NCBI GenBank assembly: GCA_045837725.1
Contig: JBEWZL010000298.1
Coordinates: 1-64,000 of the forward strand
Direction: 5' to 3'
Source: Vermamoeba vermiformis
Taxonomy: Eukaryota
Length of the DNA stretch: 64,000 nt
This document shows, piece by piece, positions 37,514 through 64,000 of the stretch; position 1 is the first letter of the stretch; every line of letters starts with the position of its first letter. The notes beneath the pieces were generated by a model. It ran no database searches and was not told where the DNA came from. It saw only the letters and a list, made by a program, of their open reading frames with translations. Both the position numbers and the translations under genes were made by a program.

Positions 37514-39325
37514 ATGCAAGCCAACGTGGTCATTAGCAATGTCGATCGCTTGTTCGCATCTGGCCAATTTGAGCAGGCCCTTGAAGTCTTGGAGTAAGAA
37601 TTGACACATAAATTAATATAATATTCTAGACATTTTAATAAGGAGTAATTGTCATATCTCACCAGATCAAATAACAAAGCTGATCTTCCTTTGCGTGAAA
37701 AGGTTCAATTATTGCTTTACATGGCCAAGTGTCATCAACAACTCAAGAATTTTAGTCGAGTAAGCATTTAAATATTATCCTACCTTATAAGAGATTGGCA
37801 GCTCATAGGAATGTACAGGTGAATAAACTTGCTACATCCGCTATCGACTTGTACACGACCACTACACTGACTAATGCCAACGAGAATATTGTACTCGCCA
37901 AAGAGGATAACGAGCTGCTAGCGCTACTATATTCAATACGCTCAGTAGCCCAAGAAGAGAATGAAAAGATCAGAGATGCAGTGGCTGACTTGGAACGCGC
38001 TATGAGTCTTAGCGAGACAATGAGGCACGGGTATGAATCATAGTAATGCATATATATCGTCATTGTCCTCTGACGCGTATGTTCCTCAGATCCGCGTACA
38101 GGCAGCGTCTGACTCGCCTCAAAACACTGCTGCAGCGCATTGCCAATGAAGATCGCAGCGGTGAGTTCACCGACTACTATCGTACCATATATAGACTGCA
38201 CATATTACGCAACCTGCCGAGTACTGCAGCACTCAACACGCCTTACCGCGTTGACTTTCGTTTGACAAACGAGTTTGGTCTGTTCAAGTACGAGGAGATT
38301 TCGCAGCACGTGGGTTCATTGCCGATGCACATGACAGTGCTCGACAAGCACGGCCGCGTGTTGAATGGATCGACATTAGAAGTGCGCGTGGTGGGTGAAG
38401 ACAAGTACGTGAAACAGTCTAGTGAGGCATGCACTCGAACTGACCAATCACAATTAGAGCTGAGATCACTGCACGAGGGCGAGCGAGCTTTATGATTGCA
38501 TTGAGTGCTGGGCCAGAGATCAACACTAGCGACTCTATTCACATCGCATTCTCTGTGCACGGTGCGCTGAAGGACTACGTGATCCCCGTGCTGACTGCAC
38601 CGATCTGTGTCGCCAGTCACGTGACTGACAGCAGCGAGGAAGTCGTGCCTGACCCCTACGAGTACAGACTGTTCCCAGTGCAGGGCAAGCACGTGATCCT
38701 CAAAGAACAGATCTGCGAGATTGCAGGCAAAGTGTGGGACTGTGCGCTCTTGTTGATCAGATTCTTCGAGCGCGAGCAGATCTCGTTCACTGGCAAGCGA
38801 GTGGTGGACATTGGTTCAGGCACTGGCATCAGTAAGTTGTAACTCTCACCAGCTCCTACACAATACTCATATACTAGTGTATTAACCGTCATCACTACAG
38901 TGGGTCTAGCATGCCGCCAACTTGGTGCTGAACACGTCATGCTCACTGATCTGGACAAGGCACAAGAACTGTTGCGCGCTAATATTGCACTCAATCAAGG
39001 TCCTGGTGAGAGTGAGCACGTGACTACTCATTGCCTATTTTGGGGTGATCAAGCGCAAGCTCAAGCTCTCAATCCCCCTGTAGATCTGGTAGTCGCGACT
39101 GATGTGATCTACGAATACAAGTTCTTAGATCCGCTGATACAAACACTCACCCACCTCTCCGGTCCCAATACAGTCATATATCTCGCGTATCGATCACGAG
39201 GCCTCACATCCGAGCAAGAACAAGAAGCCTTCACGAAATTGAAGAGCACGTTCAAAGTACAGCAGACGCAATACGTTGAAAAGGATTTCTTAAACATATC
39301 CATATGGGTCTTGACAGCTAAGTAA
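37514..39325 (+). CDS. TPR-like N-terminus + METTL21/family 16 protein lysine methyltransferase
   Basis: GKVWDCA, VVDIGSGTG, MLTD, DLVVATDVIY motifs; helical TPR-like N-terminal exons. Confidence 0.85.
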
Positions 39326-42775: not shown

Positions 42776-44786
42776 TTACAGGGAGGTGTTGAGCAAGTTG
42801 AATCCGTCTTCGTGCTGCAAATGACACGTGTCAATTAGGGTGTCGCGTAACTATGTGAAATTTCATACCTCAGCGGGGGTAAAGCGGCGATAGTTGGGCA
42901 GTGAGCCGTGCTGCGAAGAGGGCGCGGCATTGTCAGTCGAGAACTGCTGCTGCTGCTTGAGCCACTTGATCTCTTCGGCCTGCTGCACCACCACGCTGCA
43001 AATAACACGTGTCAGTACCACAGATATTTTCACTGAACTTGCGTGGTGTCAAAGTCTACTCACCGCTGCAGTTTGACAATCAGTTCGTGCTGTTTGCGCA
43101 TCTTCTGCTCGAGTTTGTCGTACTGCTGCTGATTGATCTCCAAGAACTTTTTGATGGGTTCGTAGCGACACGACTCGCGCAGATGAGTGCCGAGCTCTGA
43201 CCGATTGCCGCGGTACTCGCAGCCATATTCTTTGTGCAGACAATGGACCTTCACCAGCGGACATTCGCGCTGCAAGTGTTGTTTGAGCTGTTTGCGCCTG
43301 AACACGGCCTCGCAGTTGTTCGGGCACGTGATTTGTTCTTCGGGACAGTGCGCGCGATGTTCGGCGGAATATTGCTGCAGATAGTGCGAACTGCACAGTG
43401 GGCAGGTGATCACTTTGAATGAACAGACTGCATCGTGACTGGGCTGATCTTTCTTTCTGATTTTAGCGCCGCAGCCCCGATTGGGACAGTCCACCAGTTC
43501 ATATTGACAGTTCTCCACGTGTGATTTCAATTCGCTGACTGGCACGATGGCGGGACAACCATCCGCGTCTAATAATAGAATCATGAGCGGGGGTGATCGC
43601 TAAAGTATAGTACTGCATACCAGGCACCCAGAAGTCGTTCAGATCCAAAAAGAAATCTCCTTCATCGACGCGTGGTGCACCGCCAGGCACGGGCCAATTG
43701 AACTCAATGCGATCAGTGCTCGACACGTCATCTGCTTCAGTGCGCAGTCGTACTCCCCACCGACACCTCGCTGGCAGCACTTCGATTGCCTAATTAGGAA
43801 GTCAATTTCAGTTGATACACTTGTTATGGCAAGAGCCAAACTAGACATACTTCAACTATCTCCTGATTGACGGGCAGTTCTTTTGGACCACCTTTGGGAA
43901 ATTTCATGACGTCGCGACAGAGCGGACAGTAATTGCTGTGTGCTTGACCTGACGTCCAGACTTGCTCGAGACACGGGCCACAGAAAATGTGACCGCAGCC
44001 TGGAAGAGAGCGCGGCAGTTTGAGCAGTTCATTGCACACTAAGTGCAGGTCAGTGACGCGTGTTCAGTGAAACAGATCACGGGACTTACCGGCGCAAATC
44101 GCCCACGACGGCACGCGCACCAAGAGGTCGTCAGTGGTGGGTGCGTGCAAGTAGTGACTGAGCGGCGAGAGACCAGTCTCTGAGGGCTGCGAGCTCTGAC
44201 TCGAGTTGAGTGGCGTGCTCAGACTCGTCGGGGTCACTAATATGTCGCGCGGACTCGTGGCCCCTTGTGCTGGTGAGGCTATGACACCTGTCGCGGCAGT
44301 GCGGTCATTGACAGGTGTCTTCTGAAAGATGTCTTTGATTGCTTCACTGAAACTCTTGCTCCGTTCACGAATGATGGTGAGCACGGACATGGGTGACTGG
44401 CGCTGATTGGTGTTCGAATTGGTGTTGCTCTCAGCCTGGATCGGTATCGGCGCAGTGCTGTCAAACAAGTTCTCGTCCATATTTACAGTGTTGTTATTGT
44501 TGGTGTTGTTATTACTCCGCGCATTGCTGTTGGCTGGAGAGTAATTCATATTTACAGATGTGCTCGAGTACGTGGGGGCACTGCTACCCGGTGTAATGTA
44601 CGTGTTGTAGTTGTTGTAGTTGTAATTCCGCCGCGAGAATATTAATCGGTCTGAAAACAGTTTGTTGCCGGACAAAGTTCGCGCTGCGTTTGTGTTGTTG
44701 TTGTTTGTGGATCGACGCTCTGATGTTGGTTGGCGCGAGCCGTCATCTTGTGTTAGAAGCTCGTCCCAATCCTCTTCGTCTAGCAT
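42776..44786 (-). CDS. TRAF-like RING finger + TRAF-type zinc fingers + coiled coil (no MATH domain)
   Basis: RING (C..C...LPGCGHIFCGPC...CPLCR), tandem CPNRGC/CPLC/CPNNC fingers, Asn-rich N-terminus. Confidence 0.85.
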
Positions 44787-45499
44787 ATTGATTTCCTATC
44801 CCCTTTCAAGATCTGAGTAAAATTACAATTATTAATAAAAACAATTTTAGATGAAATAAATTGAGGCTGTAATAAAAATGAAAATAAGAAATTTGGAACA
44901 TATAACACGCATATAAATTTTTTTAAGCAAAGAAACAGATAAATACAGCCTCAAACAAAAGTTCAGTCTTTAGATTTACCGAATCGAGGGCAAATTGATT
45001 CTGTCGTGCAGTATACAAAGGTCTAGTACCGAAAACTCGTACAATATATGTGATTCGTCCGTATTTTGATATAGTTGAACGAGTTGTGTTGGTGTTAATC
45101 GAGTTTTTTTGTTGTTTAGAAAATTCGTAATCGCTGCATCACCCCACGAATTGACGAATGGCTGCAGAGAGTGAAGATCGGATGATGTGCTATCGAGAAG
45201 AATCAAGTAAGGTCCTTGCAAGAACGAGAAGAATCTTTTTCTTCGCGCAATCAAATGTCGATCCGTCAATCGAGGGTAAAAATAGAAAATCCTGAAATTG
45301 CAGCGATTTGGACAAGTGACAATTGATCCTTGGATATTATTTATCGAAGAGGTGTACATGAATTGACTTCTGCGACTTAGCCGCATGACTGCAGAAATTT
45401 CTAGCAAATTGCTCGTAAATCCGGTTTGAGTTCAAACAATTTTAACTGTACATGGTGTCTGTTACAACAAATGCAGTATATATAATACATGGTTCGACG

Positions 45500-48125
45500 T
45501 TAATCATCGTTCAATTCATCATACTCGGGTTCCCAAACCTGCAGATGTCCCTGATCGTCGTAGACAGCTTTGGCTTGTTTGGACCAGACGCGCGTGAGGG
45601 CAATAGAGACGGTGATAGGTATCTCGCCAGTCAGCTCTTGCATGGCCTGACACACTATCTCTTCAATCATGCGTGACTCCTCGTTCCAGTCGCAGGTCTC
45701 GGGTATCTCCAGCAAGATCTCGTCGTGAATGAAGCCGACCAACTTGTACCCGACTTGCATCAGATTCCACATCGCTAACTTGGCACCGTCAGCTGCGAGG
45801 CCTGAGAACGGTGTGTTGCACGCTTGAGTGAAGCCAACTCGACCGCGGATGCGGCCAGTGAGCGTGACAGTCGCGCGTCCAAACAGTCGCTTGAAGAGCT
45901 CTTCGTTGCCCGTCACTTCAGGCTGCGACACGTGCGAGGACAGTGTGCGGTACAACTCGCCCGTGCGACACACTTCCATGAGTCCGTTCCACACTTTCTT
46001 GACAAAGTAGGGGTTGTAGGGCTTGGAGTCTTTCTTTCTTATCGCTTGACCGCGCACAATGTTTCTGATGCCACCAGCCACGGCAGGAGATCGCTTTTTG
46101 TTCCACGAGAACTTGCGCCAGCACGTGTCAACATCAACGCCCAAGTTCTCAGCGAGCGTGTCCATCTCGGACTCTTTCAAGTAGTGACTCAGCTCGGGGT
46201 ACACGCGCTCAATCAACATGGCACGGAACTTTTCGGCCTCTGCAAGGACGAGGAATATGAGTCAGTGGCCTAGTGTAATAGAGAGAGGGTCATTTACCTT
46301 CGGGCTCGAGTGCGACACCATAGGCTTGTTGTGCATAGACACTCAGACCATTCGCTGTGAGACCGCTCGGAATGCCGAAATTAATCGCTTTCGCTTGCTG
46401 TCTCAACGAGCCGAACTTCTTCTTGAGCTCTGCATTGTCTTTCCACGTCATGAACTCGGTCAGGGGCACGCCTTCAATCATTGCAGCTGTGAAGCAGTGC
46501 GGGTCAATGCCTTGAATGATCACATCGGCCAGCACTGAGAAGCCGTAACGAGCCTTGCACACAGCAGCGAGGGTGCAGAGCTCGATGAAGTCGTAGTCGA
46601 GGGCCACTAACACGTGACCAGGCGAGGCCTTGAAAATCTCGCGAAATCCTCCCTTGCGCGGAGTCTGTTGAATGGGCGGGTTGTGCGCTGATGTGCGACC
46701 ATTGCGCTTGATGACAGAGTACTCGGGGTGTGCTCGATCAGATTGCAAGTGCGACAAGAATGCAATGTAATGCGCCGCTTGTTCCATGTCAATCCACGTG
46801 CGAATGAACTCGTTGTAGTCTGCGTACTCTTGCCAGATCTTGGTCGAGGTTGAAATTTTGGGGCCAGTGGGAGTGATTTTTTCGGGGATAGTCACGGCAA
46901 TGTTGTACGTGTCTCTGATCTCTTGCGCGGCTTCTTGCAGCAGTTCTTCCAATCTCTTCGTGATCACTGCTGGCTTCTGCGTGTCGCCCTCGCGTTGTGG
47001 CACAATGACACCGTCCTTGACAGTCAAATCGAACAGTCCTTGGTACTTGGTGTTGGCAATCAGCTTCTGCACTGCGGCCATCATTCTCTTCTCGAGCTTT
47101 TGTCGTGCTTTGTCGACGCGTGTCAAATCAATGCTCATGCCGTTCTTGGTGATGTCCGCCAATACAATGGCGCCCTTGACTTGAATGCCCTCGCTCAGTG
47201 GTCCATAAGCATCGAGGGCATTCACGAACATTTCTTCGTTGAGTTCGTTCATCAGACCTACGGCGAGTTGATACAACTTCTCGTAGACGATTTTAATCAC
47301 AATTGCATCGCGAACAGCGACTTCAGTCAGCTCCAAGTCTTCGTGAATGGGTGGCTTGTTGCTGCAACTCAAATGTCAATTACGAGCGTCAAAAAAGTAA
47401 ATTTTTCAACTTACGCCATGAATTTGTAGCTCGTGGACTCTTCATAATGACGCTTGCCGTATTTGTAGCGATCAGTCGCAAGTCGCAAGTCACTGAACTC
47501 CTCTGCGATTGCTTCCAACTCGCGACGAATGGTGTACTTGTCGTCCAGTGCTAATCTGACGAGTATGTCCAACAAATGAACATCACGCATGCGACATTCA
47601 TTGACAATCTCCCACCACCACTCCAAGGCCTCGGCCGCATCGTTATCCGCAAAGTAGGTGCGCATTAAATGGAAATCCAAGGCTGCATCTTGACACACAA
47701 AACAATAGTCCTTGTGGTGCTTTACAAAATCAGCCAAATGATTTTTTGGCACGACGCAATGTTGTTCTCCTGATTATAAAGCATAAATATCTAGTCTTCG
47801 GTCGCAGTTAATTTCTTATAAATTTACCTGTGCTTGCTACGGCAAATAAAACGTTGTCTTGCAAAGGGCGCAATCGGTCTTCTTTAGTAAAATATTTGAT
47901 ATACTCTTCGTCCTCAGCTCCTTTAATTATTAATTTAAAAGCCAGAAATTTGGGCTCTGGAGCAGTTAAAGATCCGTGCTGTGGTTTCCATATGAAGAAG
48001 TTGTGTTGTGATTGTGATACCACTGTAGGATAATATTCGGTGATTTCTTCTTCACTCGGCAAAGGCTCAATCGATTCTTCAGAGCGAGCTGAAGGGATGA
48101 CAGCTTGGATCGCAACTTCAGTCAT
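45500..48125 (-). CDS. Family A DNA polymerase, bacterial/phage-like type, degenerate 3'-5' exonuclease domain
   Basis: GRTSAHNPPIQQTPR, motif A DYDFIEL, motif B RQQAKAINFG, NTPFSGLAAD, motif C FIHDEIL; 3 GT-AG introns. Confidence 0.92.
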
Positions 48126-48359
48126 CGGTTAACGTGCAAATTACCTCTTACGCTAAAATAAATAATTAAGGTGCGCTTCAGTTGAGGTAACGCAGTAAAG
48201 CAAATGAAAAAAATAAAAAAAACAAAGTTCTTTTCCTGGAAGTGAATTGAATGGTCTTTTTGTTTTTTTTGCGCTCTTCTTCTTTTTTAGCATTTCAAAA
48301 CTTGCAATCAACAACAGCTCCAGATATATCTTATTTATTGCTGGGTATACAAGACAAAA

Positions 48360-50916
48360 ATGGAGTATGAAGCGCCAAGCCCAATGACGTAAGTACTATT
48401 CAACCGCCATTGATTTTATTTTACCAAAATATATTAATTAATTTATTTTGTTAGTGCCGAACAAAAGGCATTGATTGCACAGGAAGATGATGCTCGAACT
48501 TTATTCGCAGATAACCCCAACTCGTCTCAGATCTCTGATCCACACTTGCTGCTTCTTAATGTTTACGACAACGCAGACAATTTCAAATATGAAGATGAAA
48601 CTCCTGAAGAGGTAATTAAAAAGCAGAATAGCAACGCAATAATATTCAAAGGCGAAATTCTAACTTCTACGAAATCTATTTAGAAAAAAGTGCCCAAGTT
48701 GTTGACTCAAGAACGAAAGCTCGGTCTTACTGGCCCATCTATATTGCCTAAGGAAGATTTTTTGAAAAATTGGAATCAGTTCACTGGAGGCATCTTGGAT
48801 GGTCTTGACTGGACAAACGTCTTTGCTGCTGGTGGTGCTATTTTGGCTTGCCTTTCTAAGGAACAAGAAGGATACAAGAGCTCAGATATTGATCTTTTTG
48901 TTTACGGTCTGGATAATGACGAGGACGCCAACAGAAAGGTAAATCCAAGCTCACAAAAATATCTTGTGCATCCAAAACTTATTTTTCTGATGTTCGTTTA
49001 ATTAGTTGAAACAAATCCACAGCCTTGTCGTGAGCAACACTAAGGGTGCTGGAGAGGTGATCAGAACGAGCAGAGCAGTCACCATTCTCAACTCCTATCC
49101 TTACCGTCACGTGCAGATCATTCTTCGTCTCTATCGCTCGCCTGCTGAAGTGCTCTTAGGCTTTGATATTGACGCCTGCACATTTGGCTTTGATGGTCGT
49201 GATGTCTGGGCTATGGAGCGTGGTCGTCGTGCCCTCAACAAGCGCTACAACTTGGTCAACAAGTCGCGCCGTTCAATGATTTACGAACAACGTCTCTTCA
49301 AGTACAGCAAGCGTGGCTTTGCTGTGGCAGTGCCCAACTTGGACAAATCAAAGGTCGATCCTGCGTTGTTCAACAAACGATTCAAAGAGCTCGGTGGCTT
49401 GGCCAAGTTGCTGTGGTACGATCGCAAGGCCAATTTGAACAAAGCCAACGGCAGTCCCAACTTGAAGAAGAAAGGTGGCGACGGTGAAGAAGGCGAGATG
49501 TCAGACTACAACGGAGAACTGCCCATTCCTTGGGGTCCCAACTGGGAGTCTGGTCAAATCATTCAAATGTTGAACAACCGCGACAAGACTCATTTCTTCG
49601 CCAACTATCGTCGTGCCAAGAAAGAAGGCGTGGATGTCAAGCAGAAGAAGCATCACCACATGTTCATCACTGGTATTGATCAGGCTATTGTTGGTGGCTC
49701 GTTCTGGTGCCGCTTGTGTCAAAAGAAAATGTACTTGGACGAAAACGACAGCACGGGCAAATACGTCAAGAAACCAATCGAGTGGATCAAAAACAACCCT
49801 GCCTATCAAGACATTGACAACGGCTTCAAGCGCTCGTTGATGACTGGTGCATTCAACTTGCCCATCGAAGAGAACTGGGAGCTCGGCGCTTATGTCGGTT
49901 CAGGTGTCGCGAGCACGCAAGTCACTGGCCTCTCGAGCAACACTGGCGGAGTACCTGCCTCGAGTGCTCCTCGTGCTGCAGAACCACAATTCGCTGCTTC
50001 AGTGCCTTCGTGGATCCCTCCTGTCGCTCCTGCCACACCCACCAGAGAACCATTGGCCACTCCCTCGGTGCCCTCATGGATTCCACCTACTAGCGCCAGC
50101 TACTCACCCGAATCACCGCCCGAGAAGTTCAAGCCCTCCTCGTACTCCGTGCCCTCGTACATTCCTCCCGCTGTCAAGACACCTGTTGCCACCGCTGCTA
50201 AGAAGGGTGGCGATGAAAAATTCAGCTGCGCAGTGTGCAACAAGACATTTTACTCTGAGAATCAGAAGCGCAAACACGTGAGAGATTCGGGACACTTGCA
50301 GCCGATGGGTGCCGCTGAGCCCGAGAGTCCTGGCTACTACCCCGCACCTTCCCTCTCTGCTCCCACCACCTTCGCCACTGTCGGTGCCAATCAAGCCTCG
50401 TTGTCTGGCTTTGGTCCTCAACCCGGTGCCACTTCGTCGTTCTATCAACTCTCTCCCGCGCAACAACCACAGAGCTCGCAGCGCATTGAAGACTTCCAGC
50501 CTCTACTCAGCACACCTGTCAGCAACAAGTACGACATCCCTTCGGCCTATCAACAGCCGCGTGCCTCGCCCTCGTCATTCAACATTGGCTCTTCAAACAC
50601 GAGCTCGTCAGTGCCGCAATACACCGCACCTCAACCAGTGCAATACAGCGCACCTATTGTCTCGCAATCAGTGTCCGTGGGCAATTACAGCAGTCACGAA
50701 CAGAGCGGTGAAGTCAGACCCACCACCAAGCTGTTGATGCTCGTCGCATTGTGCTTCAAACAAGGTGCTATTAATGCTCAAGAGAAGGGCAGATTGAAAG
50801 ATTTGATTATTGCCGGCAACGAGCTGATCTACTCTGCAGTGGAGGTCTATTTGATCGATCAAGACCTCGATGAACTCGTTGACACTTTCAAGCGCATTTG
50901 CCGATTGTCTAATTAA
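48360..50916 (+). CDS. Pol-beta-superfamily nucleotidyltransferase-like protein with C2H2 zinc finger and C-terminal helical domain
   Basis: AAGGAILACL...SSDIDLFVYG, QIILRLY...FDIDAC, RLFKYSKRGF; C2H2 CAVCNKTF...HVRDSGH; P/S-rich linker. Confidence 0.8.
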
Positions 50917-51189
50917 GTTGTAGACTAATCGGTCTTGTCATATATAACCTTTTTGTATTTTCATAAATGTTTGAATCGAAGCCAATCGTCCTACGTTCCT
51001 GGTTCTGTTAAGCCTTTCGAAAGAGTTAAATCACCTTAAAGCTTTCTATTGCTTTCGAGGCGATGGTTGAGAAGAATATAACGATCACTGCTTTTTTTGA
51101 AAATTTTGGTGTTTTTTTTGACTGCATTGTAAAGCATCAGATTCGAATTCTATTTACAGAGCAGTATTCGTTAATTTGCAATTCACTGA

Positions 51190-54100
51190 TTACTTGCGCT
51201 TCTCTTTCTCCAACGAATTGGATCGCGATGAATGCGCAGAGCGTTGTTGCACCAGCACGCGGTGTTGCATGGTCTGCAGTTCTCGCTGTAACTCGGCCGT
51301 GATCAGCGTGGAGATGTTGATGGTCCACTCTTGCTTCTGCTTCTCAGTGCTCGCTTGCAGCACATAGGTCTTGTTGGCAATGGTCAGTGCGAACCCTGCG
51401 TGATATTAGCGAGCGATTCATGAACGAGTGCGACAGGTGGATCATACTGGTGGCAGACAGATTGGGCTCGAGTGTGCAGTCAGCGAGGGCAAACTGTTTC
51501 TTCAGCTCGTACTGCAGCTTGCCACTGCTCGTCTTGCGCGGCTTGGTGATGAGCAGCATGTCGTTGAACAGAAACACGTGACATGCCACTTGCTGTTTTT
51601 GGGCATTGATAAAGAACAGCGCGCCCTCAGTCTTGTAGGTGCGGTGCGGGGCAGTGATTGACACTTGCTGACGTGTCTTGCTGTCACCCTCGCCGTACAC
51701 GAGCAGCTGTTGTATTTGCAGCACCACTTGATTGCTGTCGCGCTGTCGCTTCTTTTCGTTGATCAGATCTGCGGTGTGCTGTGTTTGACACGTGTCAATG
51801 CATGAACAACACGGAACTGTGACTCACCTTGATTTGCTGTGCCGCGGACAAGAGTTCATCGTCGTACGAGACTGAATTGCCTGATTTGGTCAATTCTTCC
51901 AACAGCAGCACGTAGCGCGGTATACGCTGCACGGGCATGATGAGGTAATCGGCCAGGGACAAGCGCCCTGGACTGCCTCCCGCTGAGGGCTGACCTGCGC
52001 ATTTCTGGTGGCACGTTATTACTAAATTTGGTAATTGAATCAGACTTACATCGATAAATTCCTTGAACGGCTTTTGTTTCATGAATTCTTTGAGTAATTC
52101 CGCTGCTGTCTCAAAGTCGTTGCAATAGTCCGCGTATACTTTGAGATACTCGCTCTAAATATGGTCATTAGCCAAAAGTATCATATGATCTAAAAATAGC
52201 CTTACAAATTTGTTGAACACGTGACCGAGTCGTGGTGCACTGGGCCGGAGATCGCGTTCAGATTGCAATTCAGTGAATAGCTGTTGATTGATGTTCAGCA
52301 GCACTGGCAGATTTGAGAACAGTCGTTTGACATCTGTCACACTGATCACGTGACTCGCTGTCAACAGCGGATTCATGAACCGTTCAATCACCGTTTGCAG
52401 ACTGTTCACGTAACTGCGCTCTGTTTGCAGAATTTCATCGATCACGTGATGATACTTCTCGCTGCTGCCTGATCGCGTCACGTGATTGCGCGCAGCACTC
52501 GTGTTGACACCTGTCACCGTGAGGTGATCGCGATGAATCACCACGGGACTGGCACAGTGCACGGTCAGTACAAATTTGGCAAGTAGCCCTGGTTGAAGAG
52601 TCGATGGCACGATGTACCACCACTCGTCGGCACGGTCTATTTTTAGCTCCACTCCGACCTCACGTGCTCGCTTGTACTCGCTGGAGGTCACAATCTCGCC
52701 GCGTGTCATTGGTGCGGTGGCGTCGTTGACACGCAAGATGTCAAACCCAATATGGTGAAGTGTCAAATCGGAGTCTGCGCTCTGCTGCAACAACACCGTG
52801 CACGGCCCTGGTTGAGCCACGTGCACGAGACACCATGGATTCTGCATCCACGCACTGTCACGTGATTCGCGCGCACCACCAGAGCACGTGCTCGTCCACG
52901 CCGCAGCGAACTGCACCGAGTGCCAGTAGTCACGTGCTGCACGTGTCATGTCATCGAGTGTCACGTGCTCGGTGCTGCTAATGATCAATTCGTAGTCTAG
53001 TTCCAAATTAGGAAATTCCGTGAACGGAACAACCACGTAGTCAGTGCGAGTGTCAAGGGGCACGTGATGATCGATGAGATCGGAGTGCTCCGATGACAGG
53101 GGCGGAGGAATGACGTGATCACGTGTCGTCAAGAGAAATTTCTTCTTAGCTCCCAATGGCAGCGAAGAATTCACTGCATAACTGCAAAGACCAATCGACT
53201 CGTTGACTCTCTTGGCTGATTTGTCTGGCCGTTGAATCTGCGCTATAATTAGCTTCAATGGATCAACGAGCAACTTACCAAGATGAGCGAGGTATTTGCC
53301 AGCTTTGTCTCGCTATTTGGAAATTTCAGCAAATAATGTGGATTATTCCGCCACGTCACGTGATCCAGTCCTCCACCAGATGTCTCTTTGCTCCACTTGC
53401 CTTTTATGGCAGTCATCTTTCGTTGCGTGACTTTGCTAATCGTCACGTGGCACGTGCTTGATGTTGACAGGGCTGTCAAAGTGAAGTTTCCACCGCTGGA
53501 GTGACGGACCAGCGGAATAATTGTTATCTTGTCGCAATCTCCCAAACAGAAATCTATTTCGGGCTCTCTCTCACGCGCTATCTTGAGTATGGCAGTGCCT
53601 TTACCATATTTAGTAGTCAACACCGCTGATCTCAAATCGGTCAATTTGTCACGTGACTGCCATGGAGCCAGTGCCAGCCCTATTTCCAAATCAGGCAATG
53701 CACTGGTCAGCACGAGACTGAGCACGTGATTCGCCTCCATCAAGTCACGTGATCCATCAGCTTGTTGTTGCGGAATTTCATCAAGTGTCAAAGTGAAGTG
53801 TTCGTAGATGATTGAAGAGCGGATCTGACACGTCTGCACCAGCGGCGAGGTGACACCACGTGTCATGCAGTTGTTGGTGACAGTACTCAAGCTGTGGTCT
53901 AAAAATAAACGTCTGATCTGCGCACAGTGCTGTCACTGACACGTCAATCTCACATGTCAAACTCGCGTACGGAACAATCAGCCACATGTCACTCGTGTCA
54001 ACGGTCACACGCACTGCAAGTGTCAAAAGTGTCAAACTCAATCTTATACCGACAGATCACTTACCAGTGTGCGAGGCAGCAGCCCTGGTTGAGAATCGTT

Positions 54101-55483
54101 GACCAATCTTTGACTGACTCAGATTGCGATCATCCTCAATGCGGAGTGACTCTGTTGACACGTGTCAATATCAAACGATAAATTCTCGCAATCACTTACT
54201 TGGGGCTGCTAACAGGTAAAAACCGTAATCATCGTTCGGTCTGTCCAAATTAGGTAAGTCGATACTGACGGACACCTCGAAGTCAGTACACTCTGTTCTA
54301 TTTTTAGTCACATCAGGCACGAGCAAGTACTGCCAGCGATTGGTCACGTGCCCAGCTGAGTGTCGGTGTCGATACTGCACCCTGTTCACCGAACGCACTG
54401 TCACGTGGGTGTCGCGCGTGTGAGTGAGCTGCAGTTCAAAGGCACCTGTTGTTCCGCACTGAGCAGTGGCAGGTACTACCACAATTTCCTTATTAGTACA
54501 TCCCTCGATCAGGGCGTGTGCTTCAGTGTTCAGTGAAAAGTCGCTCATAGACAGCACTGTCGCATCGTAATTCTCCGCAGTGACACGCATGACAGTCGCG
54601 TCATCGAGCAGTGTTGGTGCAGACCAGCGATTGACACCTGTCGGCTGGAGTGTGGCCAAATATAGTCCGATGAGGTCTTCAAAGTCTGTGCGGGGCTGTA
54701 TCAGTGTCACGTGCACCTCGCCATCGGAGATCACCCGATACTGCGGATTGAGATAGAACTGCGGACTCAAAATAGAACCGCCACTGCTGCGTGCTGTCCA
54801 CTGACCCTGCGTGACACGTGTCAATGTGCGGCCTGTGAGTGTTGTAACGTACCTTGACAGTGACGGTACAGAGTTCAGCGGATGAAATTTCAGTCAGCTG
54901 TGATATTCGTGCAGATACACAGCCCTGGTCGATCACGTGACCGCGCAGAGTGAATGGCGCGCAGTGATTGGGCTCAAAGGTGCAGGGCATCAGCACCCAT
55001 CGTGTCACGTGATCAGCGCTCTCGGGGGTGACTTCGACTTGACATTTGACTATTAATAGCAGTGTTAGTGTCGTTCAGTGAATGAAATGTCATGCAGCGA
55101 CCCTTACCGACTTGACTGCGCTTGAATGCTTTGTAAATGGTGCGGTGTGCATTCACATCCAGCACTCGACCACCAAATGATTCTGAAAGTTTGTATTTAA
55201 ATGATTGCACGATTATTAATAACAATTAAACAACATTAAATACCTTTGTAATCGAATATGTACAGGCCTAGAGGTGTAGAAACTGACGGGCTGATCCGCT
55301 CCAAAGTGAGTACTAATGTGCAATGTCCAGTAATCTCTATCAAATATTGTCTATTATTTCGCCAACTAGGGTAATTCAAACACCCTCCTGCTGTGTGTAG
55401 ATCCCACGAAGACTGATCGAAGCACATTAGTACAAATATTGCAAGCTAGTTCGACTACGTACTTGAAGTACTATCTCCCCCAT
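51190..55483 (-). CDS. Tandem calpain domain-III (C2-like) repeats + DH-PH RhoGEF
   Basis: Repeats of W...(S/A)GG...NPxY (e.g. AGGCLNYPSWRNNRQY, KGKWSKETSGG...NNPHY); DH EILQTERSYV, LIMPVQRIPRY; PH VFLFNDMLL...QEW. Confidence 0.85.
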
Positions 55484-55658
55484 GTATTAGATCTATTGAA
55501 GTGTATTTGAAATTGAAATTGCTTTGAAATGTATGCGGCCAAATTAGTACAAATTTGAAATCTCGTGGAAATTTAAGAACTCTGAGACACAGCATAACGG
55601 TTAAGGTGCTATTTACAAAGTGTTAGGTATCAGATATATCTACATCACATAGAATGCA

Positions 55659-56479
55659 TTAATCGTCATTATCGACATTCAAGCTCGTGTAACCAGAGCC
55701 TTTCTGTTCAGATGCAGGCTTGATCAGTCGACTTTGTCTGAGCTGTTGATGCAGACCACTCGCATTGAGATTGGTCGGTGGTGCTGCAGTTACGGGCAAT
55801 AAGGACTCGCGCTCTAACGACACCGATCAACAACAGAGCAGTGGCGAGCTAGATCCAGTACGTACCGGGTATGATGGGATGACCGCGCAGTGAGCGGTGC
55901 AAGAAGAAGGCAAACAGACCTCCTACGACCTTGAGAGCCATACCAAAGGCGAGCAGTATAATGTAGTAGTTGCTGCGGTGAGGTGTCAGTACACAACAGT
56001 CTCTCCTATGCACTAGGCGATATCGCTACATACGACAGCGAGGTGGCGGTGCCGAGTGTGTGTGTCTGCAAGTACTGCGCCCACAACAACAAGCGCGCTG
56101 TGTCGACGGCTGTGGAGAACACCGAGCAGAACAGGATGTACTGGAACGGAGTCAAGGAAGCATTGGATGGTAGCGTGTATTTAAGCATTTGTACTGATCG
56201 AATAGTGGCTGTACAATGATTTAAATACTTGAAATTGAAAAATAAAAAAATCGAAAATAAATAATCGCTTCTAGGATACTGCCAACAATGAGCTCTTATT
56301 GTTCCGATACCATCCTATATAATATTAAAACATTTATAATTAACAAATAAAATCTTACCGTAAAAGCCAAATAGCGACAAAACCAGATTGAGATCTGACA
56401 ACAAGAACAGCGAGTTGAGGATGCTGAGCAGTACTTGGCCTACAAGTACTATAAGAAAGAATGTGCGCACCAAACTCAT
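55659..56479 (-). CDS. Small multi-pass (about 4 TM) membrane protein, AGTRAP-like
   Basis: Five exons splice in frame: MSLVRTFFLIVLVG...GWYRNNKSSLLA|YILFCSVFSTAVDTARL...YIILLAFGMALKVVG...NVDNDD*. The family call is tentative. Confidence 0.6.
56141..56279 (-). other. U12-type GT-AG intron
   Basis: 5' splice site GTATCCTA; branch site TTCCTTGAC ending 10 nt before the 3' splice junction; phase-0 in-frame join LLA|YIL. Confidence 0.85.
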
Positions 56480-56639
56480 GGAAGTTGTAGTGCCGAATAT
56501 TCACGCGACTAGTCGAATGAAAAGTGGATCTGCATAAAATAATTTATCAGACACGTGACAGCAGAACACAGCTGCTCACAGTACTGTTAGGAAAGATATT
56601 AGTATTCGACAGATATTGATATAGTTGTAGTGCGTTGAC

Positions 56640-58262
56640 ATGTTGCTCACAACGCTCACTCGATCCACTTGGCGAACACTGAACTCAGGCAAAAGTAATT
56701 TTCAATAATTGAGATATTACTACATAAAGGCCATATATTTGTAATAGTGTGTCAGAAAATTAATTAAAAATATTCTAGAATTTGTAGAGAGCAGATCCAG
56801 CCTCACATCTGTGTTCGTGCGTCACCAGTCCACTGACTTGAAGCGCGCATCACCACAAGGTACCACGCACGCTATAACTGCAACACTACTGACACCCCTC
56901 AGATGTGGAGTTCATTCGTCAACGGCGCGCAGATCCCACGAACAAATGTCACAATCTGCCGCCGCACATTGAGCAGTACGTGGGCATCAATCTGCACAAG
57001 CGCCTGCACCATCCACTCAACACCATCAAGGGCATCATTGAGAACTACTTTGCGAACGATTATCTGCCCAGAAACTTCACCAAGTACGCTGCCTTGTCTC
57101 GAGCCATTACCAAATTAGGCAATCACTTGTACTGACGCCATTCACTGAACAGAGCCGACAACACGCGTCAAATGCAGGTGTTTGATGACCTGAGTCCAGT
57201 GGTCACTACGCAACAGAACTTCGATGCGCTGCTCATACCACGTGATCACGTCAGCCGTTCACTGAACGACACGTACTACATTGACAGCGAGCACGTGTTG
57301 CGCACTCACACCAGCGCACACCAAGAGGAGCTCATGAAGCGCGACTACCGCTCATTTCTCGCGACTGGTGAGTGACAGCCTGCATGCCACGTGACACTGA
57401 CTTGCCTAATTAGGTGATGTGTACCGCCGCGATGAGATCGATGTGACGCACTTCCCCGTGTTCCATCAGATGGAAGGTGTGCGCGTGTTCGATGCGCGCG
57501 AACTGGCCCTGCTGTCACGTGATCGCAACGATGCAGACCCCATTCAAGCAGTCGGAGCAGATCTCAAGGCCGCACTCAGTGGTCTCGCGCGGAGATTGTT
57601 CGGAGATCACGTGGAGATGCGCTGGGTCGATGCGTACTTCCCGTTCACTGAACCGAGCTGGGAACTCGAAGTGCAAATGGAGGGCAAGTGGCTGGAAGTG
57701 CTGGGCTGCGGCGTGATCAATCGTGCCATCACGCGCAACTGTTTCGCGCAGAACAGCAGTGCAGATCCCGCGCAACACGTGCAGGGCTGGGCATTTGGAT
57801 TGGGGCTGGAACGATTGGCGATGCGGCTGTTTGATATACCAGACATTCGACTGTTCTGGTCGCAGGGTGAGTAGCGCTCGATAGTATACTATTGGGGCTA
57901 GTACTCATCGCACTTTGAGAGCAGATCCGCGCTTCATCGAGCAGTTCAGAGCGGGATCCATCCACAAGTTCAAGCCGTTCAGCAAACACCCAGCTTGCTT
58001 CAAAGACATCTCGTTCTGGCTGAGCAGCGCTGACTTCCATTCAAACAACTTCTTCGAGCTCGTGCGCGAGATTGCGGGAGATTTAGTGGAGGACGTGCAG
58101 CTCGTGGATCAGTTCACGCACCCCAAGACGCAGCGCAAGTCTGTTTGCTACCGCATCAACTACCGCTCCATGGACCGCACCCTCACCAACGAGGAGATTG
58201 ATGCGCTGCAACGACAATTGCGCGAGAGAGTACCTGTCGTGTTCAATGTGGAGCTGCGATAA
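56640..58262 (+). CDS. FARS2: Mitochondrial phenylalanyl-tRNA synthetase
   Basis: Presequence; [54 protein letters not shown]-terminal FDX anticodon-binding domain. Confidence 0.97.
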
Positions 58263-58504
58263 CAAGCCCGTGTCGTGGATGTGCTGACCACATCTGGCTT
58301 GAGAATGTTGTGAATAAAAGAAGAGCCCGTGTATTTATCTGCATTCGTATAGGTATAATCAGATCCGTCCCCTCGTAGCACGGTGTCAGTTGCTCCGTCA
58401 TTCAACGCACGTGACGGCTGATGGAGCACGTGATTTTCTCGTGAAAATACGAAAGCACCAAATCAACAGCGCAACCAACACGAATAGGCACAACAGCACA
58501 CACC

Positions 58505-60805
58505 ATGATGAGCTCATTTCAAGATCGCATGGAGGCCTGTCCTATTTGTGCGGCCTTGATTCCCAGTGCGCAGATTGAACTGCACGTTAATGAGGTGAGT
58601 GCTGCACGCTGTCGGGCCTGTAACTAATGCTGGTATTGCAGTGCTTGTCGAAGATGGACGTACAAGACAATCCACAACCACAACCTGACCCGCAACCTCA
58701 ATATCACCCAACCAATCCCTTCTTACAACCTCAACAACCGAATCCAGATCAAGACATTGTTAAATTTTTAATGGAAGAGGAAGAGCGTATTAAAAATCAG
58801 CGACAATTAGAAGAGCTTGAAAATGAAAGGTAATTCTTATTATTATAATAGTGGTAATTTTATTAGTCATTTTCGCACGCTGCGGAATTCTGGCGATGAA
58901 TTAGCGTGCACTGAGAATGCACCGATAATGCAGTACGCATGCTGATATACATCTCCAGACTGTTAAAAGAGCTGTTGGAACAAGAGCGGTTAGAACTCGA
59001 ACAAGCACGCCGTCAGCGCGAGGTGATGGATGAGCAGTACGAGTGCGCGCTCTGTCACTTGAAATTCGCATTTGAACGCATGCTGTTCTTGGATGTGAGT
59101 CACTGAGGCCTGTATATATATATGCACCACAACTAACACCCCCCGCAGAGCTGTGGCCACTACTTCTGTCAGCTCTGTCTCGCCAAACACGCCACTGCAC
59201 ACGTGGACGAGAAGCGTGTCGGTGAAATTTCGTGTCCGCACTGCACCACTCCACTCACCGCGCTCGAGATCAAGGTGCGTACTGGCACGTGACAGGTGTC
59301 ATCGTTGCGTGTCACACTCACGTTCTATATTTAGACGCTGCTGACCCCCGCCAAGTACGACGAGTACCTCACGCAGTCCGTGACCGCCGTGCTCGCCGCC
59401 AATCCCGCGCAGTTCACGCAGTGTCCCAATCAGCAGTGCGGCGTGGTGATTGAGCGCGTGCATGCCACCAGCGCGAATGAGAGCAAAGGTGAGTTGGGCC
59501 CTGATGGACGTCCGCTCAGTGAAGTGGCACAGCGCCACAAGAACGAGTTTCGACTGCGGTGTCGCGAGTGTCAAACAGAGTTCTGCGCCAGCTGTCGTCT
59601 GGTGCCCTATCACTTGGGATTCACTTGCGAACAGGTACGTCGTTCACTGAACGCCACGTCACTGCGTATACTGACAAGTGCCACCAGCACGCGGTGTACC
59701 TCAAGTCGCAGCACTGTCGATTCTGCGACACGCCGCTGAGTGCCGAGAACACACTGCGCGGTCACAGCTTGGTGTGCACGGAGCAGGACTGTGCGGCACG
59801 TGTGCTCATCTGCTGCGACAAACAGCTCGCGTGCGGACATCCGTGCGGCGGTGTGAAGGACGAGGCCGTGTGTCCGCCGTGTCTGCGCTGCGAGGGGAGT
59901 GCGCAACAGAGCGGCGAGGACTACTGCGCCATCTGCTGGACCGAAGCACTGCGCCAAGCCCCCGTGGTGCAGCTGGAGTGCGGGCACATGCTGCACTACG
60001 AGTGCTGCAAGAAGAAGATTGAGAGCAAGTGGTCGGGGGCCGTCATCTCCTTCGCCTTCTTGGACTGTCCGCTCTGCAAGAAGCGCATGCACAATCCCGC
60101 GCTGCAGGCCAGTCTGCACGAGGTAGTGGCGCTGTATCAGGACGTGGAGAGCAAGGCCCTGCAGCGCTTGAAGTACCTGAATCAGGAACAGTGCAAGGAC
60201 ATTACGGACGAGAAGAGTCGCTTCTACAAGGACCCCACGGGCTATGCACTCAACAAGTTCTGCTACTACCTCTGTTACAAGTGCAAGGTACGTACTGTGG
60301 GCTCAGTGTAGCGCCGAGTACTCACTCTTAATGCGCGCAGAAACCCTATTTTGGTGGTGAGCGCGACTGCAATGCGGAACAGCGCGTGGCTGACTACAAC
60401 CCTGCTGAACTGGTCTGCGGTGGCTGTTCTAATTTTGGCAACAAGAACTCGTGCACCATACACGGCAACGACTTTATGTACGTGTTACCCTATCTATATA
60501 TATACCGCGTACTGACCGCACTCGTTCAGTGAATACAAGTGTCGCTTCTGCTGCAGTGTGGCGTGTTGGTTCTGTTGGGGCACCACGCACTTCTGCGAGC
60601 CCTGTCACCGCATTGCCACCGAGATTGCTAAGCGGCCGAAGAAAGGTACGTAGTGTCTGGCTAGTGTCTGGCTAGTGTTGCAGTGACAGTGACTCACACA
60701 CGTGTTGCAGATCTGCCCAAGTGTACCTGCACGGTGCCACATCCACCCAACGGCGAGGAGTACTGTCTCGGGTGCTCGTTGTGTCGCATTCAACAAGAGT
60801 TTTGA
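58505..60805 (+). CDS. E3 ligase: UBZ + RING1 + IBR + MYCBP2/PHR-type RING-H2 and tandem-cysteine (RCR) domain
   Basis: CPICAALI...HVNECL; CALC...CGHYFCQLC...CPHC; CPNQQC...CREC...FCASC...YHLGFTC; CAICWTE...CGHMLH..CC; PYFGGERDC; YKCRFCCSVACWFCWGTTHFCEPCH. Confidence 0.9.
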
Positions 60806-61004
60806 GCGCGTTGTACATAATAATAATAATCGGAGCACTGAGGTCCCTCTTGTATTATAATAAAGACCTGTCGATCTGAATGAAATCTCACGCGCAGCTG
60901 AAGATTTTGCGCGCCATTTTCTTTCGAGCCTTGTTTCGTTATCTCCGGCCTCATTACTAGCACAGGTCAATTTATTTTATAGTAGTGTGCTCGCATATTT
61001 ATTC

Positions 61005-63293
61005 ATGAGCAGTAGGAACAGACCTGAAGAGTACGTTGAGCAGATCAGACAAAAAAAGTTGAAAATTAATAATTTTAGTGAATTTATTTTGCCGAATATA
61101 TTTATTATTCCGCAATATTATGCACCAAATAACACGTGAAAAATAAATTTAACATTAATATAATATTTGCTGGATCTAACGCTCACAGGGAGGGCAGCCA
61201 AACACGGCGCAAGAGACGCATAGTGCCACCACCAGCGAGCAAAGAACAGCCCAATATTTACAAATATGGACTCAGAACACCTCGTCGCACGGGCAATGAG
61301 GGTGAGGCAGATGCACCCAGCGCAGCGGAAGAACTCGAGAAGGAAGTGAAGCAGAACGGCACGAACACCAATGTGACACGTGTCAATGTGGAGCCCGAGC
61401 AGCCAGCAGCCCCTGTCGCGCAAGTCGTCGCAGTGCCAGTACGTCCAGCAGCACGTGTCCAGTCACGTGTGCCGTGGAGTGTAGTGCTGGCACCGCTGTG
61501 GTACCCCGTGTGGATCACGTGGCTGTGCTGCTACACCGTGTTCAGCGTGCTGACGTACTGGGACACGGTGCTGCTCGTGCACCTGCATCAGTTCTACCGC
61601 TACACACTCGGAGCACGTGATCGCGCACGTGATTATCATCCCACACAACTCGGTCGCACACTGCTCACCGCACTGCTCGCTGCGGCACTGCTCTGGACAC
61701 TGCTGTCGCGGCCTGGGCACTCGTCCCTCAACCAGGGCACGGCGCAGGACCTGCACGAGTTTGAAGCCCTGAGCGAGGAATTGGAGCACGTGAAGAGCAG
61801 CACACGTGATCTGCTGGCACGGCTCGAGTCAGTACCGAGTGCGACACGTGTGCAGCTGTTGGAAGAGCACGTGCGCACACTGGACAAGAGCGTGGATCAG
61901 CTGAACAAGCACGTGACTGGCCTGAAGAGTGGCAGCGAGGGCACGAGTGTGGCGAGTGTGAGTGAGGAGCTGTTGCGTGACATGAGTGTCTCGATCAGCA
62001 CGCTGCAGAACAATCTCGCCAACACCGCGCACAGGTACGTAGCGATTGCAATTCACTGAACGGCAACACTGACACGTGTCAGCCTCGAGGACAAGGTGAC
62101 CATTCTCACGGAACGATTGGCCGGACTGTCCCTCAGCTTCGATGCCCTCACTGAGCGCGTCAATCAGCAGACCGATGCACTGCGCGCACAGGTGCTGGCC
62201 GATGAACAGTTGCAACGCTTGATCGATCAGCGCATTCAACGCACACTCGAGTCAGATCCGCGCCTCAACAGACCGGAGGCACTGCCCAGCCTCACCGCTG
62301 AGCACGTGCACGCACTCGTGGAACGCGAACTCGCTGCATTCATGAACGACAAGGTGCAGACCCTGGTAGATGCCACGCTGCGCGATCTCCGCGGTGAGAT
62401 GCAGCAACAGCTCCAAGCGGAGTCACGTGCCAGTGTAGCGCGCGAGAGTGAACTGCGCAGTGCCCTGATCGATCACGTGACACAGCTGTTCAGTGAACGC
62501 ACGACACGCGTGGAGCACACGAGTGAGGGCACAGACAGGGCGTGGATTCAAGAGCAGATCCGTCGTGCCTTGCATCGTCACATTGAAGGTTCGTACTTGA
62601 ACATATATGATAGAGATATCACTAGACAATATGTGATACGCTCATATTGTAACACCACCACGTGATATTGTTGCACCCCTCGCACCGCACTGACCCCTGG
62701 CAGGTGACGTCACCGCGCGCACGGACTACGCACTGCTCACCGCTGATGCACACATTTACAAGCCCCTCACGCACTACGCACCACTGCCACCACCCGAGGC
62801 ACGTGCTTCCTCTTGGGGCTGGATCACTTCCTTATTTGGCAGTACCCCACGTGTGCGCACCCCCCACGGTCCTCGCGTGGCCATTCACCGCTCAGGGCCG
62901 CGCAGTGTGGGCGAGTGTTGGGGCTTTGGCGGTGCGCAGGCCAATCTGACGGTCAAACTTAGTCAACCCATCACTGTCAGTCACGTGACCATCGATCACC
63001 TGTCACGTGACATTGCGTACAACATTGAGAGTGCACCGCGCGAGTTCCAGATCTGGGCCGTGAATGCGACGCACGCAGATCCAGCGCACTCACCGCGCAC
63101 CTTGCTCGGCACCTTCGAGTACGACATTGAGGGCGAGCCTGTGCAGACCTTTGCATTGCCTAATAAGGCTATTCCGACGCAGTACATCACGCTGGCCATT
63201 CTGTCCAATCACGGCCACTACTACACGTGCTTGTACCGCTTCAGAGTGCACGGCACACCGCTGCAACACTCCGCGCCCAGCACCGTCAATTGA
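61005..63293 (+). CDS. SUN-domain nuclear envelope protein
   Basis: Hydrophobic/TM segments, coiled coils, DYAL...GECWGF...HVTIDH...SAPREF...SNHGHYYTCLYRFRVHG. Confidence 0.95.
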
Positions 63294-63465
63294 GCGACAT
63301 CTGGCCTGGAAGGGACTGCAGAACTCACCTGTGCGATATTCCTGTAAAATAAAGACACGTTGTATATAGTTGGTGCGTGCTGTGCAGTCCTTGGCCCTGG
63401 TAGAGGTGTTGTGCGACATTTTCAGACCAGTCAATTAACACCTCAAACTCACATCGAGCACACCA

Positions 63466-64000
63466 ATGGCTGATAAGACTGTGTACAAGGTCGTATTCGT
63501 GCGTCACGGCGAGTCCGTGTGGAACAAAGAGAACAGATTCACTGGCTGGACTGATGTCGATCTCTCTGAAAAGGGTGTCGAAGAAGCGAAACAAGGTGCT
63601 CTTGCTTTGAAAAATGCGGGTATGTACTGCGTATATTTAATTCCATGCATTCCGTTCTCCACCAGCACGCAATTATTAAAAGATTTTTATTGAAAATTTT
63701 TGCGTTGAATTTTCGTGAATCTGCAATCAATTCGCTGACTGACACGTACAGGCTTTGAATTCGATGTTGCCTACACTAGTGTGCTGAAGCGAGCTATCAA
63801 GACGTTGTGGTACGTGTTGGAAGGCTTGGATTCGTACTGGTTGCCCGTCACTCGCGACTGGCGCTTGAACGAGCGACACTACGGCGCACTGCAGGGCCTG
63901 AACAAGGCTGAGACCGCAGCACTGCACGGCGAACAACAGGTGCTCGTGTGGCGCAGATCGTACGACATTCCACCCCCCGCACTCGAAGTGTCAGATCCGC
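63466..64000 (+). CDS. gpmA: Cofactor-dependent phosphoglycerate mutase (3'-truncated by window edge)
   Basis: [50 protein letters not shown]. Confidence 0.97.

Follow-up and report, generated by a model that had tools for sequence, protein, structure and literature searches.

The uptake sequences (USS and DUS) of the Pasteurellaceae and Neisseriaceae are bacterial, non-palindromic words that are tied to natural competence and are maintained by transmission bias, not by gene function. In eukaryotes, the E-box/G-box consensus is read by bHLH-ZIP or bZIP proteins and includes the USF/TFE 'CLEAR' site GTCACGTGAC, the yeast Cbf1/CDEI site RTCACRTG, and the plant G-box. Known sites of this kind occur in small numbers, in promoters, enhancers or point centromeres; in the point centromere, CDEI is a single RTCACRTG beside an AT-rich CDEII and CDEIII. 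In cyanobacteria, the highly iterated palindrome HIP1 (GCGATCGC) is enriched 15- to 300-fold, according to Xu et al. (PMC5861425). Here we analyse the palindromic hexamer CACGTG in positions 1 to 64,000 of contig JBEWZL010000298.1 of Vermamoeba vermiformis (assembly GCA_045837725.1); this whole 64-kb stretch is referred to as the window. The word is in strong excess in the window, is crowded into certain genes, and acts as nucleic acid.

All occurrences of CACGTG were counted as sites and located by their start positions. The window holds 106 sites, against a mean of 22.2 (standard deviation 5.1, maximum 38) in 100 dinucleotide-preserving shuffles, none of which reached 106. Under an order-2 (trinucleotide) model, CACGTG is the most over-represented hexamer of the window, with an observed-to-expected ratio of 3.9, and it also ranks first under the maximal order-4 model (212 versus 160 on both strands, z = 8.3). 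The excess is limited to the full palindrome: the 15 remaining CACGNN words have 23 to 57 copies each, compared with 212 for CACGTG, and in the window the remaining ACGT-core palindromes have 6 to 17 copies and the remaining CANNTG words 4 to 30. Enrichment is approximately 5-fold (4.8) window-wide and 7- to 11-fold in the hot 4-kb bins, with 27 sites in 52001-56000 and 23 in 60001-64000, where local dinucleotide content predicts 2.4 and 3.1, respectively. Beyond the two dense blocks described below, it is still about 3-fold (57 versus 18.5-19.9). An earlier note on this DNA, made from its letters alone, had counted by hand about 27 and about 21 sites in two stretches, and both counts are exact. 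It had also described the left third of the window and 49000-50900 as sparser, which agrees with the 14 sites found in 1-21333 and the 2 found in 49000-50900. As for the possibility it raised that a local di- or trinucleotide Markov model would remove the enrichment, the excess persists from order 2 to order 4.

Words one letter away from CACGTG were also considered. CpG is not depleted in the window (observed-to-expected ratio 1.06). The CpG-transition neighbour CATGTG/CACATG is low under orders 1 and 2 (ratios 0.25 and 0.48, versus 0.77-1.97 for other one-off words), which resembles a signature of very short patch (VSP) repair. This candidate was dropped, given that the deficit shrinks under order 3 (14 versus 18.7); since a general scarcity of CATG and TGTG accounts for most of it, it is not used as support. 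In the hot blocks (5.1 kb), there are 6 one-off words of the form NACGTG or CACGTN beside 49 CACGTG, compared with 99 beside 57 in the rest of the window. One-off neighbours as a whole number 37 in the hot blocks versus 54 in order-2 simulations; this ratio was likewise dropped and the raw counts alone were used, since the order-2 null is inflated by the trinucleotides of CACGTG itself.

Density is highest in two blocks. Block A (52218..55011) has 27 sites in 2.8 kb, with starts at 52218-55006, against 4.4 expected under the order-2 model. It covers the 5' 2.8 kb, exons and three introns alike, of a reverse-strand gene at 51190..54990, whose 10 predicted exons encode calpain domain III-like repeats followed by RhoGEF (DH) and PH domains (Pfam). 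The span of this calpain-III/RhoGEF gene holds 28 sites, only 2 of which are in its last 1 kb, and one site of block A lies just upstream of its predicted start. Block B (61377..63229) has 21 sites in 1.85 kb, with starts at 61377-63224, across a forward-strand SUN-domain gene (61189..63293) with Sad1_UNC at the C-terminus. An organellar-type phenylalanyl-tRNA synthetase (PheRS) gene (56640..58262, forward strand) is moderately dense, with 6 sites, or 3.7 per kb. The gene models were produced by our own small dynamic-programming predictor; they are approximate and merge some adjacent genes, and the SUN-domain gene was wrongly joined to an upstream RING gene (58939-60771). The true start of the calpain-III/RhoGEF gene may be further upstream, and its model is borne out by the relative described below, with identities of 0.85, 0.89 and 0.63 at codon positions 1 to 3 and of 0.60 in introns.

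Among 22 gene spans, site density is uneven (G = 119.7, 21 degrees of freedom, p = 8e-16). Exonic sites occur at 9.6 per kb in the two blocks and at 1.15 per kb elsewhere, and short introns carry a site in 3 of 7 cases in the blocks versus 8 of 87 elsewhere (p = 0.033). These values indicate that density is a property of the gene or block and not of the protein; CACGTG is concentrated in particular transcription units, including the calpain-III/RhoGEF and SUN-domain genes. Denser genes also tend to have a higher G+C content at third codon positions (GC3), of 0.59-0.71 versus 0.50-0.59 in genes that have no site. RNA reads with the same species label are 95-99% identical to 44001-64000, with many fixed differences, and must therefore come from another strain or a sibling species. 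Their depth is approximately zero over 52005-55339 and 61343-62676, versus 1-30 on the neighbours, a pattern in which low expression and divergence are inseparable at the 95% identity cut-off.

In terms of predicted gene structure, 78 sites are exonic, 16 are in introns, and 12 are intergenic. With dinucleotide expectations specific to each class, the observed-to-expected ratios are 4.1 for exons, 6.4 for introns and 3.5 for intergenic DNA, and the densities are 2.2, 1.9-2.1 and 0.59 sites per kb, where the intergenic class includes undelimited untranslated regions (UTRs). All three frames are used by the exonic sites: 42 read CAC GTG, 25 read xCA CGT Gxx, and 11 read xxC ACG TGx, the last being least used because TGx encodes only Cys, Trp or stop. 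The open reading frame (ORF) segments of the hot genes contain 47 sites, against 14.8 after shuffling of synonymous codons (maximum 23 in 500 shuffles) and 4.2 after codon permutation; the other ORF segments contain 32, against 16.4 (maximum 25) and 7.5, respectively. The occurrence in introns and in exons of different frames that the earlier note reported is thus confirmed, and the enrichment neither disappears under codon shuffling nor is confined to a single reading frame.

This abundance is reflected in the encoded proteins. Among dipeptides, His-Val shows the largest over-representation, in the hot genes (22 versus 4.9) as well as in all other gene models (32 versus 13.4). In the hot ORFs, 23 His-Val pairs are found where 5.5 are expected, 22 of which are spelled by CACGTG, whereas Val-His is not enriched (6 versus 5.5). 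The hot genes favour the codons CAC (57 of 70 His) and GTG (80 of 127 Val). Across 149 distant homologues of the hot exon, His-Val occurs 155 times versus 159 expected, while an 80%-identical relative has 7 versus 1.6; similarly, 120 homologues of PheRS have 119 versus 125 expected, and the close relative has 4 versus 1.1. The His-Val excess belongs to the lineage and not to the protein family. Apart from the 80%-identical relative, none of the top matches to the hot exon exceeds 31% identity; only the His-Val counts of such homologues were used, since they are too distant for residue-level polarity of gains. For the PheRS exon, the best named matches have about 60% identity and are scattered over many groups (Closterium, oomycetes, green algae). 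In the SUN-domain gene, two CACGTG sites at 62982..63009 (forward strand) encode the family-conserved SHVT and LSRD, and are made by codon choice on conserved residues. The idea that CACGTG arises by 6-bp in-frame insertions was rejected, as these sites align ungapped with residues conserved in the family.

The hexamer is the core of a longer symmetric form. It extends to TCACGTGA in 20 copies, to GTCACGTGAC in 6, and to GACACGTGTC in 8, every one of which is TGACACGTGTCA; that many sites extend to longer forms had been remarked before, and these counts bear it out. The fuller form is R-N-CACGTG-N-Y, with a purine at -2 in 90 of 106 sites and a pyrimidine at +2 in 84 of 106. At -1 the order of preference is T > G > A > C. 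The form CCACGTGG, which carries the flank classical for plant and Myc-type sites, occurs once in 106. This rule is present in every frame, in introns, and in intergenic DNA, and once the sites are turned to the direction of transcription, the preferences show reverse-complement symmetry. It is also specific to the full word: the purine fraction is 0.82 compared with 0.52-0.63 in sibling words, and T at -1 reaches 0.41 compared with 0.20 in siblings, C being disfavoured. Symmetric flanks are the expected product of a two-fold symmetric reader of duplex DNA. The 12-mer palindrome ACGTGATCACGT, present at 53113 and 57240, consists of two overlapping half-words around GATC, and its copy at 57240 is kept in the relative.

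The relative, which was found with the hot exon, is represented by two overlapping metagenome contigs of one organism, 100% identical over 4264 nt. It is orthologous to 50.1-57.5 kb of the window, with 76.5% identity over 6084 aligned columns, and has 21 CACGTG in 6.3 kb versus 3.05 expected, being rich and poor in the same places as the window. Over the 7.3 kb aligned, 19 of 34 window sites, and 19 of the 23 in the relative, are kept exactly and contiguously, including the PheRS sites 57239 and 57292; an apparent match at 57388 is an alignment artefact and was scored as not conserved. In comparison, palindromes of equal G+C are kept in 12 of 42 cases (p = 0.020), one-off variants in 16 of 50 (p = 0.042), and hexamers overall in 1854 of 7329. 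Exonic sites are kept in 17 of 28 cases, compared with 1491 of 4975 exonic hexamers overall (p = 0.0013), and for the first 30 sites, 17 are kept where the class-matched expectation is 7.9 (p = 0.0004). Third codon positions are identical at 47 of 56 positions inside sites (84%) versus 1032 of 1642 outside (63%; p = 0.0005), while first and second positions inside sites do not differ from background. Twelve of the 14 exonic sites that differ between the species do so by an amino-acid change, whereas codon differences over the whole gene are 279 silent and 244 replacing. This implies that sites turn over through the protein sequence while silent positions inside them are held. As far as these alignments can tell, CACGTG is held against mutation in both species.

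Given that the excess survives codon shuffling, that introns are used, that the flanks are symmetric and independent of frame, that silent positions are extra conserved, and that the His-Val excess is lineage-specific, CACGTG acts at the level of nucleic acid. The DNA-level process proposed in the earlier note therefore stands in so far as the signal is in nucleic acid and not in protein; its two candidates, a methylase or repair process and bHLH sites, are not told apart by these results.

HIP1 and the alternate cyanobacterial palindromes are likewise short, GC-containing palindromes found in all frames within genes and also between genes. Xu et al. (PMC5861425) tested HIP1 for conservation against control palindromes and for codon conservation inside versus outside the word. 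The same tests repeated on CACGTG give the same outcome: in one species pair and 7.3 kb, it is more conserved than control palindromes and one-off variants, and codons are more conserved inside it. The suggested likeness to HIP1 thus holds for the palindrome, the use of all frames and the conservation, yet it is loose in degree, since an enrichment of about 5-fold in the window, or about 10-fold in the blocks, compares with the 15- to 300-fold quoted above for HIP1. Unlike HIP1, CACGTG is found in a eukaryotic nuclear genome with spliceosomal introns, its sequence is not GCGATCGC, it is a hexamer core with degenerate symmetric flanks instead of an octamer, and it is strongly uneven between genes. 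The uptake sequences are comparable in being short words that run through coding DNA in all frames, with an imprint on peptides and an uneven distribution among genes, although we know of no process in eukaryotes equivalent to the competence on which they depend. The E-box/G-box sites share the core, the purine at -2, the favoured T at -1 (the GTCACGTGAC/T forms are frequent 10-mers here), and the two-fold symmetry. However, the hot genes have 20-30 sites each in exons and introns, and 78 of the 106 sites are in predicted exons. The layout is also unlike that of a point centromere, as the sites are in coding DNA of approximately 50% G+C at about one per 100 bp, although no search aimed at CDEII or CDEIII was made. 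A full-text literature search, with subscription journals and supplements outside its scope, found no description of a CACGTG-rich eukaryotic genome, of a eukaryotic highly iterated palindrome, or of TGACACGTGTCA as a genomic element.

The sequence is eukaryotic: three introns of 52-65 nt with GT..AG ends are spanned by RNA reads at 60.3-60.7 kb, and GTAAGT ranks second among the over-represented hexamers. Introns of at most 80 nt (n = 94, 5.2 kb) contain 11 CACGTG, or 2.1 per kb, one of which (60699..60704) is in the RNA-confirmed intron 60646-60710, 6 nt before its 3' splice site. The intronic consensus is A-T-T-G-A-CACGTG-T-C-A, in which TTGAC/CTGAC resembles the branch-point element of other introns. 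Three copies of TGACACGTGTCA lie in predicted introns: 54156..54167 in intron 54152-54199, 7 nt before the 3' splice site; 54812..54823 in intron 54807-54852, 8 nt before it; and 62070..62081 in the SUN-gene intron 62035-62082, 4 nt before it. In the first, the relative keeps ATTGACACGTGTC while the remaining intron has diverged; in the second, it has TGACA-GTGTCA. A near-copy of the element is retained by the relative in two other introns. Another copy of TGACACGTGTCA (61374..61385) is inside the first exon of the SUN-domain gene, in the frame xCA CGT Gxx. More generally, introns such as 54014-54064, 54152-54199 and 51779-51827 have TTGACAC or CTGAC at 10-25 nt ahead of the 3' CAG. This element resembles a branch point, and the relative preserves it while the introns have diverged in their 5' halves. 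The 15-mer CACGTGACAGGTGTC occurs twice exactly in predicted introns of unrelated genes, at 35072-35086 (reverse strand) and 59286-59300 (forward strand), 11-19 nt after the 5' splice site; with three further copies at 2 mismatches, it has 5 copies in total versus 0.2 expected.

The inverted repeat TGACANNTGTCA (TGACA-NN-TGTCA) has 12 copies versus 0.17 expected, at 26599, 30496, 35743, 42822, 51786, 52328, 52505, 54156, 54812, 59290, 61374 and 62070. Its centre is CG in 8 of 12 copies, which thus belong to the CACGTG family, and GC, TC, CC and GG in the other 4; 5 of the 8 CG-centred copies lie at intron 3' ends on a branch-point-like TGAC. TGACA..TGTCA may be a motif in its own right. One copy (26599) is exactly TGACAGCTGTCA, a type of palindrome that we take, as a lead only, to be a TALE homeodomain dimer site (MEIS/TGIF/PKNOX). 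Perfect palindromes with arms of at least 5 number 125, versus 68 in order-2 simulations (maximum 84), and 106 versus 67 (maximum 83) when those centred on CACGTG are removed, with AT-rich simple sequence making up much of this general excess. Examples that contain GC are GGTGACCGGTCACC (35850) and GGTGACGTCACC (62703). Around the 106 CACGTG sites, flank pairs are complementary somewhat more often than their marginals predict at +-1 (41 versus 31.4) and +-3 (37 versus 27.4), and no more often than expected at +-2, 4, 5 and 6.

The explanation we consider most likely, though we hold it tentatively, is that of a dimeric DNA-binding reader that marks gene bodies. R-N-CACGTG-N-Y matters as nucleic acid, is written into particular transcription units through exons of all frames and introns, and is kept against mutation at the cost of altered codon choice and amino acids. 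It would be a double-stranded DNA word read by an abundant, two-fold symmetric protein of the kind that reads E-box/G-box sites (bHLH-ZIP or bZIP like), and the dense arrays, with roughly one site every 100 bp, would set entire gene bodies apart as a chromatin or regulatory domain. A dimeric reader is preferred because the symmetric 10-bp form is present in all sequence classes and because the pattern is gene-wise; both the DNA-binding nature of the reader and the domain-marking role of the arrays are inferences. For bHLH sites, the one supporting feature is the palindromic, symmetric 10-bp form, which suits a dimeric reader, and several points weigh against such a reader. A scan of 40 translated ORFs or exons from the window, a set smaller than that of all predicted exons, gave no match to an HLH, bZIP or DNA methyltransferase domain. 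To our knowledge, 27 transcription-factor sites in one coding region are without precedent, such sites normally being few and located in promoters. The extra conservation is equally expected from site-restoring repair or conversion, and the position of intronic sites near 3' splice sites fits a splice-linked role in RNA better than a chromatin mark. The results rest on the 64-kb window, picked because it is CACGTG-rich, and on about 7.3 kb of one relative; only three introns are supported by RNA, the other gene models being ad hoc. Private sites number 15 in the window and 4 in the relative (p = 0.019), a difference that may be due to ascertainment and is no evidence of biased gain, since the window was picked for richness and there is no outgroup.

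A molecular drive of the HIP1 or uptake-sequence type is possible but less probable. An enzyme system would create and restore a functionless R-N-CACGTG-N-Y, either through an orphan CACGTG methyltransferase with mismatch repair or through mismatch or conversion bias in heteroduplex, and density would follow local recombination or repair. The palindrome with symmetric flanks is what an enzyme recognition site would look like, and a density that follows conversion would lead one to expect the higher GC3 of denser genes. Drive explains about as well as a dimeric reader does why protein sequence is overridden at 12 of 14 differing exonic sites and why so few incomplete words stand in the hot blocks. 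Elhai's model for HIP sequences is of the same kind (PMC4390886), whereas Xu et al. attribute similar conservation of HIP1 to selection and not to replenishment (PMC5861425). Against drive stand the CATGTG deficit, which collapses under order 3, CpG, which shows no sign of methyl-cytosine decay, and the window translations scanned, which include no methyltransferase. Moreover, a uniform drive limited by protein constraint predicts more enrichment in intergenic DNA than in hot exons, the opposite of what is seen. A signal at the RNA level, in which the self-complementary CACGUG (UGACACGUGUCA in introns) would bind a protein or pair and so control splicing, retention or silencing, is in our view unlikely. 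Sites are similarly dense in exons and introns and rarer between genes, and 8 of the 11 short-intron sites are 4-10 nt before the 3' splice site, overlapping or adjoining a branch-point-like TGAC or CTGAC that the relative keeps where the rest of the intron has diverged. It is chiefly this positional bias that supports a role in RNA or one linked to splicing, or else the seeding of palindromes by a constrained half-site. Nonetheless, reverse-complement symmetry is expected for duplex DNA and not required of an RNA motif, intergenic DNA, a class that here includes UTRs, is still 3.5-fold enriched, and exonic sites are dispersed through long exons instead of clustering at junctions. Even less probable is a general palindrome-forming mutation, in which template switching would perfect near-palindromes seeded by constrained half-sites such as TGACAC. 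The overall surplus of palindromes, the 12 copies of TGACANNTGTCA with 4 centres other than CG, and the complementary flank pairs at +-1 and +-3 are in its favour; but much of the surplus is AT-rich simple sequence, the remaining flank pairs show no such complementarity, and neither the dominance of one hexamer centre nor silent-site conservation is explained. Finally, it is very improbable that the pattern stems from base composition, from codon usage, or from a protein motif that recurs in repeat-domain genes. The hot genes are rich in CAC and GTG, the calpain-III/RhoGEF gene consists of repeated calpain-III-like domains, and the SUN-domain sites encode the conserved SHVT and LSR. Yet every Markov and shuffle control leaves enrichment, three frames and introns are used, and His-Val is in excess where Val-His and the distant homologues are not, so that codon shuffles, silent-site conservation and homologue counts exclude such an artefact to our satisfaction.

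Other features of the window were noted. CCGG is its most under-represented tetramer (100 versus 171, ratio 0.58), and the most depleted hexamers are CCCGGC, CCGGTT, CGCCGG, GCCCGG and CCCAGG/CCTGGG, against the overall CpG ratio of 1.06; CCTAGG has 0 copies and GGGCCC has 1. The CCGG-type depletion looks like site-specific avoidance or decay. On the forward strand, the window encodes a cytochrome P450 (8151-9533), a long, multi-exon plexin-like gene (18007-24153), whose relatives combine TIG/IPT, PSI and RasGAP domains and whose matches, like those of the SUN-domain gene, are metagenome or transcriptome proteins, and a protein-lysine methyltransferase (37514-39325). On the reverse strand are a class C G-protein-coupled receptor with a periplasmic-binding-type domain (223-3319) and a TRAF-type zinc-finger protein (42776-44786). 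Further genes encode RhoGAP, RapGAP, a DNA polymerase of the A family, and LEA_2/DUF3712, with many regulators of Rho, Ras and Rap. As an impression only, such a gene content is reminiscent of amoeboid protists.

The frame-blind palindromes and words of bacteria, such as HIP1 and the uptake sequences, have a cause that is still debated. The window shows such a signature in an intron-bearing nuclear genome, with frame independence, an imprint on the proteome and silent-site conservation, and it is shared with a relative. If genome-wide, it would offer a second, independent system in which to ask whether these words are a selected signal or result from a bias in repair or conversion. It is conceivable, although doubtful, that HIP1 and the uptake sequences have a eukaryotic counterpart here, in which repair, methylation or conversion drive continually writes R-N-CACGTG-N-Y into the transcription units of a protist lineage. 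Under such a drive, a word of six bases would evolve in the nuclear genome as a selfish or system-level element that overrides synonymous and amino-acid choice, and His-Val would be the commonest excess dipeptide of the proteome. A constraint at the nucleotide level can measurably shape eukaryotic protein sequences; such a constraint would be a source of bias for codon-based and dN/dS analyses of the lineage, and would mislead motif-based promoter prediction.

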